Origin: Candidatus Hermodarchaeota archaeon
GTDB lineage: Archaea > Asgardarchaeota > Heimdallarchaeia > Hodarchaeales > Hodarchaeaceae
Assembly: GCA_048886185.1 (NCBI GenBank)
Contig: JBHLKY010000046.1
Coordinates: 1 to 11,726, forward strand
Direction of reading: 5' to 3'
Length of the DNA: 11,726 nt
A program made the position numbers and the translations under genes. How positions within the stretch are numbered: the stretch's first letter is position 1; every line of letters begins with the position of its first letter. This document shows positions 2,869 through 11,726 of the stretch, piece by piece. The notes below the pieces were generated by a model. That model did not search any database and was not told the origin of the DNA. It saw only the letters and a program-made list of their open reading frames with translations.

Positions 2869-3034
2869 AACCTTCTCTTTAAATGGGGGATTACGTCAGA
2901 TCAGAATAGATGCAGAAATAAAACATCTAGTGATGACCAGAAACATAGTTTTAAGCTGTCCCATGGGATTGACATCGTGAGGATTGTTTCTTCTCGTCAA
3001 AAAATTTCATCCATGATAAAAACGAACAGGCACA

Positions 3035-3152
3035 AGACCGAAAGCGCTCTATAAGAATCTCCTGACTCCTGAAGCCACTTGACGATAGCTCTTGTTAAAA
3101 ATCTTAATTTCCACACGGTTAGCCCTAGAGCGTACAGATTTCAGAGCGATTA
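3035..3152 (+). repeat. Intergenic repeat R2 (type II-like centre, short linker, nested 5' motif inside the 3' module)
   Basis: AGACCGAAAGCGCTCTATAAGAATCTCCTGACTCCTGAAGCCACTTGACGATAG...AAAAATCTTAATTTCCACACGGTTAGCCCT-AG-AGCGTACAGATTTCAGA-GCGATTA. Confidence 0.9.
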
Positions 3153-3174: not shown

Positions 3175-3918
3175 TTAGTGGTCAGCTAAACCTCTCGACC
3201 GTGTTTTGATTGAATAATAGTGTTCTCGTTCATGCTCAATGAATCGCCGCAAAATCTTATTGGAGGTCCATTGTTCTTTAGGATAGGGCGTAAAAGCTTC
3301 TCGTGTGAATATTCTAGCTCCTTTTTGAATAATCAAATCTTTCAGCACATTAATACATCCTCTTCTTACAAGCTCAAGTCGTTCAAGAATTGGGGTCTCA
3401 TCAAGACGAGGAATAGACATTCCAATATATTTTTCATATAGAATATCTGCCTCTTTTCCTAATCTAGATTTATACCACTCTTCAGCATTACAGATATGTG
3501 TTAATACTTGAATTGTGGTTCGGTTACTATCAGACAACTGTTCAGATAGTTTTTCTAGAGGAATTTCTCCAATGAGTTCTAATAAAGACTGACGAGAAAA
3601 TTCCATTAACTTCAAATAATAAACCAATCTTTCTGACGTAATAGCTTGTTTATCAAATTCAAAAAGAGCTACAGTGCCTCCAGATTCCCCAAGACGAGTG
3701 ATATTAAAGAGTTCTTCTTTTATTATAATTCGTTCATGTGTAGAAATTGAAATCTCCTCATTATAATGCTTTAACCATAAGATATGCTCATTTACTTCTG
3801 ATTCGAGATTTTGTAACAAATCTTCTCTAGAATTAGCCTTTGTAATTGTACCTGGTAAGTCAATTATTCTACCATACCATTTATCAGAAGTTCCCTTTTC
3901 TATAGCTGAATATAACAT
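3175..3918 (-). CDS. HicB-like antitoxin domain fused to a DinB-like (four-helix, His-metal) domain
   Basis: The N-terminus WYGRIIDLPGTITKANSREDLLQNL fits the HicB partial RNase H fold motif. The C-terminus (SRQSLLELI...RTTIQVLTHICNAEEWY...WTSNKILRRFIEHEREH) fits the DinB family pattern. A GAGGT RBS-like site lies upstream of the ATG. Confidence 0.75.
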   Translation of the reverse strand: MLYSAIEKGTSDKWYGRIIDLPGTITKANSREDLLQNLESEVNEHILWLKHYNEEISISTHERIIIKEELFNITRLGESGGTVALFEFDKQAITSERLVYYLKLMEFSRQSLLELIGEIPLEKLSEQLSDSNRTTIQVLTHICNAEEWYKSRLGKEADILYEKYIGMSIPRLDETPILERLELVRRGCINVLKDLIIQKGARIFTREAFTPYPKEQWTSNKILRRFIEHEREHYYSIKTRSRGLADH

Positions 3919-3949: not shown

Positions 3950-3992
3950 TTCCACAATTTTTCCTAAAACAAGCCCTTGTGCGATTAGTGGC
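3950..3992 (+). repeat. Intergenic repeat R3 (3' modules only)
   Basis: TTCCACAATTTTTCCTAAAACAAGCCCTTGTGCGATTAGTGGC. Confidence 0.85.
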
Positions 3993-4003
3993 AGCTGACT
4001 TAA

Positions 4004-4681
4004 TTAGTCGTTATTCAACCTTTTGGTTTTAGATATTCCTATTAATAATTTCCATTCATTCTTAGGTTTCGCGGTAACAATGGTTTTATTATGCCATGCC
4101 TCAGGTCGATAAATCAACTCAAAAGCAAAGTTCAAAAGATCAGATCTCTCGATTTCTGTTGTTTCCAAGAGATTTGTTGGGCCAACACCATGTAGCTTCA
4201 GGTCAGGCTCGGTAAACTCAAATAATAATATTATACTAATATCTGCTGCTTGATGTGCCCCTCTCTTTTGACCTAAAAGTAAAAAGTAGTGATCAGGGAC
4301 AACGGGCTTATCATCTCTTGTTACTCTTTTGAGACCTAAGACCCAAGAATACTCTGTTGCGAATAAGGTGTCAAATAAGTCATGGGTGAAAACAGGATAC
4401 CTCCGAATCGGCAAAATTCCAACATTTTTGGTTTGGATTCCTTTCACATCAAATGTTACCCCTCTAAACGTATGTAAGGGGGATTCAAGTTTCCTAAGCC
4501 TGTCTCTAAGCTCAATAACCTCCTGTTTAAGGCGATCTCTCTCTGATTCGAGTTTATTTCGCTGGGTTTCCAGTAATTGGCGTTCAGTTTCCAGCGCGCG
4601 GATTCGACGTTCCATCGTTCGCGTATAGGAGTCAGCAAAATCATCATGTGAAGCTTTCTTTTCATCCACAGGTTCTGGCAT
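4004..4681 (-). CDS. Hypothetical protein: PAN (proteasome-activating nucleotidase)-like N-terminal coiled coil fused to an unknown domain; no AAA+ motifs
   Basis: YTRTMERRIRALETERQLLETQRNKLESERDRLKQEVIELRDRLRKLESP resembles archaeal PAN N-termini (Y-L-RRIR-LE...L---P). No Walker A or B follows. Confidence 0.75.
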   Translation of the reverse strand: MPEPVDEKKASHDDFADSYTRTMERRIRALETERQLLETQRNKLESERDRLKQEVIELRDRLRKLESPLHTFRGVTFDVKGIQTKNVGILPIRRYPVFTHDLFDTLFATEYSWVLGLKRVTRDDKPVVPDHYFLLLGQKRGAHQAADISIILLFEFTEPDLKLHGVGPTNLLETTEIERSDLLNFAFELIYRPEAWHNKTIVTAKPKNEWKLLIGISKTKRLNND

Positions 4682-4770: not shown

Positions 4771-4837
4771 ATCTGACGATAGGTTCACTGAAGGTCCACA
4801 AAATTTTATAAAAATTAGCCCTGGTGCGATTAGTGGC
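4771..4837 (+). repeat. Intergenic repeat R4 (central and 3' modules, long AT linker)
   Basis: ATCTGACGATAGGTTCACTGAAGGTCCACAAAATTTTATAAAAATTAGCCCTGGTGCGATTAGTGGC. Confidence 0.88.
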
Positions 4838-6216: not shown

Positions 6217-6279
6217 ATAATCCACACATCTCTCAAACAACATCCACTAAAGGTTAAAGAGCTTTCAATCTTTCCCCTT

Positions 6280-6420
6280 CATTCCCCGAAAATAAAACAC
6301 TAGCGTACAGCTATTAGACCGAACCCGCTCTCCGAGAAGCTCCTAACTCCTGAAGCCATCTGACGATAGATACGCTGAATTTCCACAGATTTTTAAGAAA
6401 GTTAGCCCTTATGCGATTAG
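6280..6420 (+). repeat. Intergenic repeat R5 (full length, ~140 bp)
   Basis: CATTCCCCGAAAATA..AGCGTACAGCTATTAGACCGAACCCGCTCTCCGAGAAGCTCCTAACTCCTGAAGCCATCTGACGATAGATACGCTGAATTTCCACAGATTTTTAAGAAAGTTAGCCCTTATGCGATTAG. Confidence 0.93.
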
Positions 6421-6793: not shown

Positions 6794-6950
6794 TCAAGGA
6801 TTGTTAGAACAGATCACAATGCATGCTGGGAAAAAAGAGGACATTAAGTAGCCAAATACATCACCAATATCAGGCACAATACCCCCAACAAGAGCTTCAA
6901 TATCGACAAAAGTTGTATATACAATAATCACGCCAAAGATTTTATAAAAT
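6794..6950 (-). pseudogene. Possible short hydrophobic ORF or gene remnant abutting R6
   Basis: Stop-free frame KIFGVIIVYTTFVDIEALVGGIVPDIGDVFGYLMSSFFPACIVICSNNP* ending at TGA 6794-6796. GTG 6931 is the first plausible start. Confidence 0.3.
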
Positions 6951-7034
6951 CTCGAAAATACGAAAAAGCGTACAGAAATTAGACCGATCCCGCTCTATGA
7001 GAAGCTAACGACTCCTAAAGCCATCTGATGAGAG
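6951..7034 (+). repeat. Intergenic repeat R6 (5' module only, truncated after CTGATGAGAG)
   Basis: CTCGAAAATACGAAAAAGCGTACAGAAATTAGACCGATCCCGCTCTATGAGAAGCTAACGACTCCTAAAGCCATCTGATGAGAG. Confidence 0.9.
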
Positions 7035-7190
7035 TATTTTCTCAGAAGAACGCATATTTATTTCCTGAAATTCCCAGAGAGGGATCTATTACTCATAAAA
7101 CTCATATGGGTAGGGATCTTGATGGTATTCATCCCACAGGGGAAGGAGATACAAATGTATACTGGGTGAAGACAGTTAAGGGGTTCCACC

Positions 7191-8027: not shown

Positions 8028-8308
8028 AGTTGAACAATTAACACGGATTGGCAGAAGGATTGACTTTTATAGGCTGAATAAAATCGTCAAATACGAGATT
8101 ATGTTAAATTACCCTCGCGATATTTGTATTACTGTTAGTCGTTGTCGCTATTATATTGGGATGGTTACAAATACAAACTTCTTTCTCACTCAATATGCCA
8201 CTCAAAATGCAGACAACCTAGTGTTTTGCGATTATGTAAAGAGACAAAAAGAGAATACCATGTGCGGTTCTGGTTAAATCCTCTTTCAATTAGAAATAAT
8301 AGTACAAA

Positions 8309-8419
8309 AGCGGATAAGTACTAAACTGATACCGCTCTAGGAGAAACACCTGACTCCTGAAGCCACCTGACGATAGGTCCGCTGAATTTCCCCACGGGGA
8401 GCCCTTGTGCGATTAGTGG
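8309..8419 (+). repeat. Intergenic repeat R7 (near full length, short linker)
   Basis: AGCGGATAAGTACTAAACTGATACCGCTCTAGGAGAAACACCTGACTCCTGAAGCCACCTGACGATAGGTCCGCTGAATTTCCCCACGGGGAGCCCTTGTGCGATTAGTGG. Confidence 0.93.
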
Positions 8420-10099: not shown

Positions 10100-10238
10100 A
10101 CCCGAAGGATCAACAGCGGACAAATTTCAGACCGAATCCGCTCTAGGAGAAACCACTGACGCCATCTGACGAGAGATTGTGGAAAAATCTTAATTTCCAC
10201 AATTTTTGAGAAAAATTGGCCCTGGTGCGATTAGTGAC
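10100..10238 (+). repeat. Intergenic repeat R8 (type II centre, 7-nt deletion, long linker)
   Basis: ACCCGAAGGATCAACAGCGGACAAATTTCAGACCGAATCCGCTCTAGGAGAAACCACTGAC[-TCCTGAA]GCCATCTGACGAGAGATTGTGGAAAAATCTTAATTTCCACAATTTTTGAGAAAAATTGGCCCTGGTGCGATTAGTGAC. It contains perfect inverted repeats ATTGTGGAAA/TTTCCACAAT (10176-10203) and AATTTTT/AAAAATT (10201-10217). Confidence 0.93.
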
Positions 10239-10244
10239 AGGAAT

Positions 10245-10811
10245 TCAAGATTCCTTTTTTAACACTTTTAGAATTAAATCATGAAAAATCCTTTCAATCA
10301 CTTCAGTGTCCATAGGGGTGGCTTCATAATAATCCACCCCCAGCACCGCTGCAGAATCCTGCCCATTAACTGAGGGTAAATCGTCAGAACCGGTAATAAT
10401 TCCCACTAACGCAATTGGAGGGGAAGACAGAGGAAAATGGGCTTTAAACTCGTTGTACCAAAATTCGACCGCATCTAACGAACTTTGGTCATTTTTATCA
10501 AAGATAATTATGGCAGCAGAAGCACCACAATAATAACTCGGTCTTAACTTCTTAAAAAATTGTTTACCAGCAGTATTCACAAGAATGAGTTTTATAGATT
10601 GATTGTTGATAGTAATATTCTTAACATACCTCTCTAGCCCTAATGTGGGTAAATGACTTAAAGTGCGCCTCTTGGTATAGTTCGTAATAAATTGAGTCTG
10701 TAACTGAGTGTGATTGCCAATTATGCAAATTTTTAGGGGATATGGGATTTCATTCATGAAATAGCTCCCTTCTTGTGTCATGAAAGATTCGTCTGTTAAG
10801 AATGTATTCAT
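10245..10811 (-). CDS. Rab/Ras-like small GTPase-fold protein with degenerate nucleotide-binding motifs (pseudo-GTPase)
   Basis: It is collinear with Rab: LKICIIG, PTLG, IKLILVNTAG, SYYCGA--AIIIFD---SL--V--W, IALVG, LG-DYYE. G1 is GNHTQLQT, G3 is NTAGK and G4 is GIITG. The likely start is ATG 10757. Confidence 0.85.
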   Translation of the reverse strand: MNTFLTDESFMTQEGSYFMNEIPYPLKICIIGNHTQLQTQFITNYTKRRTLSHLPTLGLERYVKNITINNQSIKLILVNTAGKQFFKKLRPSYYCGASAAIIIFDKNDQSSLDAVEFWYNEFKAHFPLSSPPIALVGIITGSDDLPSVNGQDSAAVLGVDYYEATPMDTEVIERIFHDLILKVLKKES

Positions 10812-10854: not shown

Positions 10855-11346
10855 CTAGTTGTAAATGGTTATGCGAATTAAGAGAGAAATTTCATACAGA
10901 GAAGCTTCAAAGAAGATATACCAAGGAGAACCTGATTCTTCCTTTCGAGGTAATTCAAGGAGAGAAAACAGCAGAGAAATTTGATCCATTTCCTCCTCAG
11001 TAAGTTCAAATTCTTTTGACTCATTAACCGCAAAAGTGGCTGATTCGTTTAATGCTGAGAGGAGAATAGGAATTGTGGAGGCGTGACTTCGAGTTAAATT
11101 TCCAATCGGGAAGGAATAAGAAGAATCAACTTTAGTAATAATTAAAAAATGTGTAGTTTCTTCTCCACCACGAAAAAAACAACCCGAGGAGAAAAAGACC
11201 AGAAGAAGACTTAAAGGCAAGAAGACCTGTCTACGATTGAGAGGAGTCAGCAGAATTTTCAGCTGCATAGATGCTTCCATCCTGTGAACATATAGTGTAA
11301 TCTGAGAATTCGCATTCTTAAAACTATTCATTTCTGAAAAATACAA
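10855..11346 (-). CDS. Probable lipoprotein or secreted protein
   Basis: From ATG 11268: basic residues (NRR), a hydrophobic stretch and a lipobox-like FSSG-C. The track TTG start at 11346 falls inside the 5' extension of R9, so it is unlikely. Confidence 0.7.
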   Translation of the reverse strand: MYFSEMNSFKNANSQITLYVHRMEASMQLKILLTPLNRRQVFLPLSLLLVFFSSGCFFRGGEETTHFLIITKVDSSYSFPIGNLTRSHASTIPILLSALNESATFAVNESKEFELTEEEMDQISLLFSLLELPRKEESGSPWYIFFEASLYEISLLIRITIYN

Positions 11347-11458
11347 ACACAGCGGACAGACATCAGACCGAAGACGCTCTCCGAGACGCTCCTAACTCCT
11401 GAAACCACCTGACAATAGGTCCGCTGAATTTCCACACGGTTAGCCCTTGTGCGATTAG
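11331..11458 (+). repeat. Intergenic repeat R9 (full length, short linker)
   Basis: TTTCTGAAAAATACAAACACAGCGGACAGACATCAGACCGAAGACGCTCTCCGAGACGCTCCTAACTCCTGAAACCACCTGACAATAGGTCCGCTGAATTTCCACACGGTTAGCCCTTGTGCGATTAG. Confidence 0.93.
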
Positions 11459-11726
11459 TAGCTGTCCGTTTAGGAGCAGATGTTCACTCAATAATCTGGC
11501 TTCTTCACTAAAAGCTACCATGAAGCATGTATTCAGGCCGCTTCTACCTGTTTTCCACACAGTAAATAAGAGAAGGAATTTGTTAAGCAAGTTGAACAAC
11601 ATAGAAGAAGTAAAGGATTAAATCAAAGGAAGGGAAAGGCATTAGTAATTGCTAGACATACTGATCAACAAAAATATTAGGAATTCCAGTCGGCCCTTAA
11701 ATCATTCATTTCACTTAATTAACATT

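Follow-up and report, generated by a model that had tools for sequence, protein, structure and literature searches.

The window analysed here is the whole of an 11.7-kb contig (C46) belonging to a 4.8-Mb, 96%-complete genome (G000) of an Asgard archaeon (Hodarchaeales). An open reading frame at 4004-4681 had been singled out in a preliminary description made from the letters alone, which named no strand. The reading frame is real and lies on the minus strand, where it runs from an ATG at 4681 to a stop codon at 4006-4004 and encodes 225 amino acids plus stop (P0001). The plus-strand reading of 4004-4681 is full of stops and was ruled out, and the ATG at 4681 is backed by homology with the start of PAN (MP..VD..KKAS). 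The encoded protein joins a PAN-derived coil to a second domain, for which we use the label X domain; the label denotes the part common to the chimera and a protein that we call X-TPR, and it has no database name. The chimera ends in ...KRLNND, about 10 residues after the end of the X domain. The features of the locus are as follows.

4004..4681, minus strand: chimeric gene P0001 (open reading frame and homology to the PAN start)
4475..4681, minus strand: PAN-derived module, residues 1-69, comprising N-terminal tail, leucine-zipper helix and S-P-L linker (PAN homology, AF2)
4544..4645, minus strand: invariant coil core, residues 13-46 (91% identical to the genome's own PAN)
4022..4468, minus strand: X domain, alpha/beta, residues about 72-220 (paralogy with the X-TPR N-terminus)
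3972..3991, plus strand: end module of the intergenic repeat, 12 nt past the chimera stop codon (repeat family)
4771..4836, plus strand: intergenic-repeat copy upstream of the chimera start, with an AT-rich TATA-like run (repeat family)
3175..3918, minus strand: DinB_2 protein, downstream co-oriented neighbour of the chimera (Pfam)
3972-3991, 4817-4836, 8400-8419, 10218-10237 and 11442-11461, co-oriented: 20-nt end modules (repeat family)
2352-2459, 3017-3124, 6278-6420, 6945-7037, 8285-8419 and 11327-11461, co-oriented: longer repeat copies (repeat family)

The chimeric gene stands alone between two co-oriented repeat copies, whose end modules occupy 3972-3991 and 4817-4836. The 20-nt end module occurs five times in the window against an expectation of zero. 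Across the window the intergenic repeats separate units of one or two genes and contain AT-rich TATA-like and T-run stretches; judged by these elements, the repeat may supply terminators and promoters. A search of the window against Rfam (E<=0.01) found no match. Such bracketing fits an accessory, shuffling-prone region. A repeat copy also lies between the chimera and its DinB_2 neighbour (E 1.5e-7), which carries a weak UPF0150/HicB-like stretch at its N-terminus (E 0.004). No proteasome genes neighbour the chimera.

Two other genes of the window deserve description. At 10245-10811 on the minus strand lies a Ras-family protein (Pfam E 6e-22) whose degenerate P-loop reads G-N-H-T-Q-L-Q-T against the GxxxxGK[ST] pattern, and which may be a pseudo-GTPase; its 50%-identical homolog adjoins a mosaic gene of a related genome, G008, that is taken up below. 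The gene at 80-2281 on the plus strand encodes a 733-aa protein of NosD/right-handed beta-helix type, which begins with a signal-like stretch, ends in a membrane anchor and is probably exposed at the cell surface. Its gene contains 69-nt tandem repeats (521-727) and a module repeated at a spacing of ~324 nt (1637-2096).

The N-terminal coil, its ancestry and its age

In a whole-genome six-frame search, residues 1-60 of the chimera proved 78% identical to the N-terminus of the genome's own PAN (E 2e-22), and across residues 13-46 the identity rises to 91%. This PAN is a 397-aa protein (G000:C3, L003:487-1680:-) with complete OB (PF16450), AAA and AAA-lid domains. It is the only OB-bearing PAN gene of this genome, a genome-wide search having given the C3 gene as the sole PF16450 match. 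The likeness between chimera and pan DNA begins exactly at the ATG, the regions upstream of which do not align, and extends through the Pro-Pro-Leu linker between the coil and the OB domain of PAN (PAN codons 1 to about 63).

In the AF2 model a single helix spans residues 7-65 (pLDDT about 90). The zipper register places Leu or Met at d positions 23, 30, 37, 44, 51, 58 and 65, whereas the a positions are I27, R34, R41, R48, V55 and L62; this unusual Arg-rich set is common to the own PAN and the chimera. The last core Leu is residue 65 in the chimera versus residue 58 in PAN, so that the coil is one heptad longer, with a net gain of six residues. At the helix end, E66-S67-P68-L69 of the chimera corresponds to PAN Q60-P61-P62-L63, and P-P-L stands at the linker in three of the four chimera orthologs. 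The coil end had been placed at L-E-S-P in the preliminary description, as the point where an OB domain would start, and this alignment bears that placement out.

The preliminary description had also read the N-terminus as a PAN-type coil and asked whether it resembles PAN any better than it resembles generic coiled coils. It does: the PAN match stands at E 2e-22, whereas the best Pfam match among generic coiled-coil families is TMF_TATA_bd at E 7e-6, below that family's cut-off, and the best PDB match has an E of 0.16. Solved PANs were not detected by the PDB sequence search with the chimera, so that the broader likeness to archaeal PAN coils does not show against solved structures; the likeness is to the PAN of this lineage. 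A bZIP transcription factor was considered and rejected, the PDB matches being non-significant (Pap1 E 0.55, C/EBP-beta E 1.6) and the bZIP-like zipper being explained by PAN homology. Judged by these comparisons, the N-terminal part is a true paralog of the own genome's PAN coil, far beyond generic coiled-coil similarity.

Substitutions indicate that this paralogy is old. Between chimera and pan, codons 1-60 give a pS of 0.69, a pN of 0.16 and a dN/dS of about 0.1, and the core codons 13-46 reach a saturated pS of 0.86 despite 91% protein identity (pN 0.09-0.16). Because the PAN orthologs of the genus are equally saturated when compared with each other (pS 0.54-0.97), the duplication must date back at least about as far as the divergence of the species within the genus. 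Synonymous saturation excludes a recent capture, and it excludes gene conversion as well, since conversion would homogenise the DNA. The combination of saturated pS and low dN/dS implies that the chimera lineage is itself constrained; by this measure the gene is an old duplicate maintained by protein-level selection. Throughout positions 17-46 the consensus of the chimera family equals that of the genus PANs, even at b, c and f, which face the solvent. In residues 47-66 the identity to PAN drops to 57%, and the X domain, whose stem branch is long (1.3 substitutions per site), shows 34-40% identity to its parent.

These results bear on the origin suggested earlier, namely that a new gene was made by capturing the 5' end of a host gene. 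The capture stands, in that PAN codons 1 to about 63 are joined to the start domain of X-TPR, with two points to correct. The dating against the own pan gene that had been recommended gives an old event with saturated synonymous sites, and the donor is the cell's own lineage and not the host of a virus; no viral contig encodes either the chimera protein or the PAN coil.

The X domain and its parent, X-TPR

Residues 96-215 of the chimera match the N-terminus of a 425-aa protein encoded on contig C8 (40% identity, E 1e-26). In this protein, X-TPR (G000:C8, L002:697-1974:-), the remainder after the X domain is a TPR array, of which the chimera has no match. The homology begins at about residue 9 of X-TPR, which is residue 72 of the chimera; from this start point and the PAN linker it follows that both junction partners were cut at domain boundaries. 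A profile of the X domain (A5) matches the chimera at E 4.9e-59, covering 152 of its 165 positions, and W113, G137-x-K139, LFEF, VGP and K-x-E-W, which the family conserves, are all kept. Modelled alone with AF2 from 23 homologs, the X domain adopts a mixed alpha/beta structure (pLDDT 85.7, pTM 0.83).

Residues ~72-220 gave no Pfam match at E<=1, none to OB (PF16450) or AAA, and no NCBIfam family. The earlier statement that the remaining ~155 aa show no OB or AAA+ motifs is thus confirmed, with X-domain homology found instead. The AAA+ Walker A/B motifs and the C-terminal HbYX tail are likewise missing from the chimera (Pfam; the C-terminal residues given above). The chimera is without everything needed for substrate unfolding or 20S docking.

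A Foldseek comparison of the C-terminal domain, which had been recommended at the outset, was run with the X domain against the PDB and gave no match at E<=0.001 (best 0.28), and in a VIA-align comparison with 48,161 chains Z did not exceed 3.1. The X domain is therefore without an assignable fold among solved structures, which does not by itself prove the fold to be new. A fold search with the full-length model was uninformative because the long helix dominates. A protein-atlas lead to TRAF/MATH scored 0.79, a range often reached by shuffled proteins; Pfam gave no MATH match and no MATH chain was among the Foldseek or VIA rows. When the X-TPR alignment profile was searched against PDB sequences, matches fell in the TPR columns only. 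We also rejected an RPN7 identity for X-TPR (PF10602, 35.5 bits), as the same match is made by many generic TPR/CHAT proteins and the TPR part matches the TPRs of LGN/Pins and kinesin light chain in the PDB. Most conserved positions of the X domain are hydrophobic or structural, and no group of them looks plainly catalytic; the domain may well serve for binding or as a scaffold.

X-TPR belongs to the core genome: each of the other 21 genomes of the genus has it, as do both genomes of a sister family. It lies downstream of an A/V-ATPase B-subunit-like gene and is convergent with a Roadblock/LC7 gene. In the present genome the cluster (G000:C8, L032:5133-10235) comprises the ATPase B-like gene, X-TPR, the convergent Roadblock/LC7 gene, a Ras/Arf/Gtr1-RagA-like GTPase and a second Roadblock gene, the last with a MAPKK1_Int (LAMTOR3-like) match. 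Of 15 related loci, 14 have both X-TPR and the convergent Roadblock gene, and the ATPase-B-like gene is present in 11 of these loci. The arrangement is reminiscent of a Ragulator/Rag-type module. Beyond the order, in a few other Asgard families, stand-alone proteins of 146-153 aa match the X profile weakly (E 7e-8 to 4e-4; L038:360-821, L039:363-806, L040:312-752); they belong to no Pfam family and have in common the motif W-K/V-V-x-F at the start and K-P-D-x-W at the end.

Distribution and relatives of the chimera

The fusion of coil and X domain is found in one of the 22 species-level genomes of the genus, the present one, which was also the only genome to give two matches in the X-domain profile search. 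Its absence from the other 21 implies that the gene is dispensable. The same protein was found on four contigs, and NCBI, JGI and ENA data yielded four full-length orthologs (224-225 aa, 78-85% identical, untruncated) together with a further relative that is 42% identical and partial, being cut by a contig end. Where the orthologs have named database records, these read hypothetical protein. Metagenome scans for ortholog DNA returned nothing or PAN genes only, and a scan of genome contigs returned one X-TPR only. A 259-aa 'PAN' of genome G015, examined as a possible chimera, reflects a scaffold gap instead. Such a coil-X protein is not described in the papers covered by a limited literature search.

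The near-invariant PAN coil recurs in other mosaics, several of them in metagenomes. It stands between DUF433 and the X domain in P0019, and whether the P0001 clade and P0019 trace back to one or two coil-X origins is not separated by the AU test (p 0.23). P0006, a 301-aa protein on an 83-kb contig, consists of DUF433, two tandem PAN coil tips and a fragment that matches the TPR part of X-TPR (residues about 320-386, E 2e-11); this is a second, different junction of the PAN coil with X-TPR. DUF433-coil-OB proteins are represented by P0016, P0023 and a 198-aa gene of G008, and coil-OB-short tail proteins by P0014 and P0015; P0017 and P0033 carry the coil with other tails. PF16450 is matched by P0014, P0015 and P0023. 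Among longer proteins, a search for a full coil-X-TPR fusion found only PANs, which is weak evidence. The G008 gene (G008:C8, L033:2820-3416, minus strand) adjoins a NosD-like beta-helix gene and two Ras-like genes; synteny with our window was considered and discarded, since the two regions have only paralogous gene families in common.

How the chimera relates to these proteins and to PAN itself can be stated domain by domain. Compared with the PAN coil (e.g. the M. jannaschii N-domain, PDB 3H43, cited in PMC8134078), the chimera keeps the register, the distal tip motif and the linker proline(s), but its coil is one heptad longer and it is without the OB ring, the AAA+ motor and the HbYX tail. 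Set against the PAN family as a whole (PF16450 + PF00004; TIGR01242-type), the N-terminal coil is present and the OB and AAA+ domains are missing; and whereas PAN is universal, the chimera gene is accessory. Its last 150 aa are paralogous to the domain at the start of X-TPR, from which protein the chimera differs in lacking the TPR half and a 4-residue 'DWDP' stretch, in its long branch, and in its front end, where the PAN coil replaces the first ~8 residues. The motor-less PAN-coil proteins of Asgard archaea (P0014, P0015, P0023), undescribed in the papers searched, have the same near-invariant coil, no ATPase and a sporadic occurrence. They keep the OB domain, and some mosaics include DUF433, whereas the chimera has the X domain instead and so cannot join an OB ring. 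On its domain content the chimera is best classified as a member of an unnamed X-domain family and a PAN-coil paralog, neither a PAN nor a coil-OB 'mini-PAN'.

Pup docks on the coil of Mpa. Together with the coil pairs of eukaryotic Rpt1-6, Mpa provides a precedent for coils as pairing or docking surfaces, although the homology of the chimera is to PAN only. Rpt coils pair with one another (PMC8134078), and PAN coils of neighbouring subunits pair by way of a cis/trans linker proline (PMC8134078). PAN coils regulate substrate processing (PMC8134078, PMC6006169), and little is understood so far of what the N-terminal coils of proteasomal ATPases do (PMC6006169).

A possible mimic of the PAN coil and the alternatives

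The gene at 4004-4681 is a selected chimera of a PAN coil and an X domain, with both parents in the same genome and a junction at the domain boundaries of both. We tentatively propose, at somewhat less than even confidence, that it encodes a functional, lineage-restricted accessory protein that arose by domain shuffling from a complete PAN coil, linker proline included, and an X domain. With the same reserve, as a reading that falls a little short of an even chance, we propose that the protein mimics the PAN coil, either pairing with PAN or competing for the partners of that coil. Its PAN-type leucine zipper would dimerise, with itself or with a PAN protomer; a helix 91% identical to that of PAN should be physically able to do both. 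The dimer would then display the distal-tip surface of the PAN coil on an X domain in place of an unfoldase ring, and could act as mimic, adaptor or competitor for a coil-tip binder, be this the PAN partner helix during ring assembly or a coil-docking ligand. Pairing with PAN might take place, for instance, while the OB ring is still open. By such contacts the function of the X domain might be linked to the PAN-proteasome pathway, or traffic might be diverted from that pathway.

Co-assembly with PAN had already been suggested in the preliminary description, and a complex prediction lends it weak support. The pair of PAN 1-125 and chimera 1-80 scored 0.59, in the weak band, against 0.00 for the best control, with at least 81% of contacts agreeing between runs and a partner pLDDT of at least 72. 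Among 80 solved complexes 58 reach the mark for this prediction, as do 2 of the 110 mismatched pairs; only 7 of the 80 pass with a score no higher than 0.60, and so do both of the passing mismatches. Because PAN coil structures have already been solved, the pass may be a matter of memory. It should also be considered that the OB ring holds partner helices together in the PAN hexamer, so that a free coil may not compete once assembly is complete.

The main rival to the mimic reading is that the PAN coil is a plain dimerisation handle, which would only dimerise the X domain and replace the TPR scaffold. The protein would then belong to X-domain biology of a non-proteasomal kind, possibly small-GTPase/Roadblock-type regulation. 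We regard this as possible, with the chances running against it. Coiled coils are common as dimerisation modules, and a coil at 91% identity could simply homodimerise. X-TPR clusters with two Roadblock/LC7 genes and a Ras/Arf/RagA-like GTPase, a neighbourhood that points to small-GTPase/Roadblock biology and not to the proteasome, and the window itself has a Ras-like gene and no proteasome genes near the chimera. Yet a zipper needs only its a and d positions (and e and g), and all surface positions from 17 to 46 stayed identical to PAN, held through saturating synonymous divergence while the remainder of the chimera drifted. Moreover, it is the same exact coil, not any coil, that is found in at least five other architectures. 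Constraint on the non-core positions of the coil is hard to explain by dimerisation alone, which suggests a need to present the PAN coil-tip surface.

It is also conceivable that the partner of that surface is X-TPR. Here the near-invariant distal tip of the PAN coil would be a dedicated docking site and X-TPR its physiological partner, in the role of an adaptor or lid-like factor for archaeal PAN. The coil is fused to two non-overlapping pieces of X-TPR, the X domain in P0001 and P0019 and a TPR fragment in P0006, and such fusions may be taken as Rosetta-stone records of an interaction; we nevertheless hold this proposal to be improbable. We consider it similarly unlikely that the gene is a component of an accessory cassette or conflict system, cargo shuffled between repeats with a toxin-antitoxin or defence-type role such as tuning the degradation of a labile partner. 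The two co-oriented repeat copies that bracket it, the five repeat modules where none are expected, the patchy distribution (1/22), the sister mosaics with DUF433 (an antitoxin-like HTH) and the weak HicB/UPF0150-like N-terminus of the neighbour would all suit such a role. However, no toxin partner (PIN/DUF5615 or other) adjoins either the chimera or the DUF433-coil-OB gene of G008, viral contigs are without the chimera, and P0001 itself is without DUF433. That the reading frame is non-functional debris, left to decay after illegitimate recombination in a repeat-rich accessory region, we consider very unlikely. A single representative in the genus, on a repeat-rich 11.7-kb contig and annotated nowhere, might suggest as much, but its orthologs are intact and full-length at 78-85% identity, every conserved X-domain residue is kept, the comparison with PAN gives a dN/dS of about 0.1 at a saturated dS, the fold model is confident, and the junctions fall exactly at domain boundaries.

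Importantly, this analysis defines an unannotated Asgard domain, the X domain, for which the model is confident and no known fold could be detected. The chimera is also a natural experiment, in which the coil has been detached from the motor and yet every surface residue of the tip has been preserved. That the tip surface is preserved without a motor argues for a specific binding role of the tip, and the chimera, or its coil alone, is a ready-made probe for the partner of the coil. Through this preserved surface the question of what binds the PAN/Rpt coil, long open, becomes directly testable, and accessory factors built on the coil could bear on the origin of the contacts between base and lid of the eukaryotic 19S particle.
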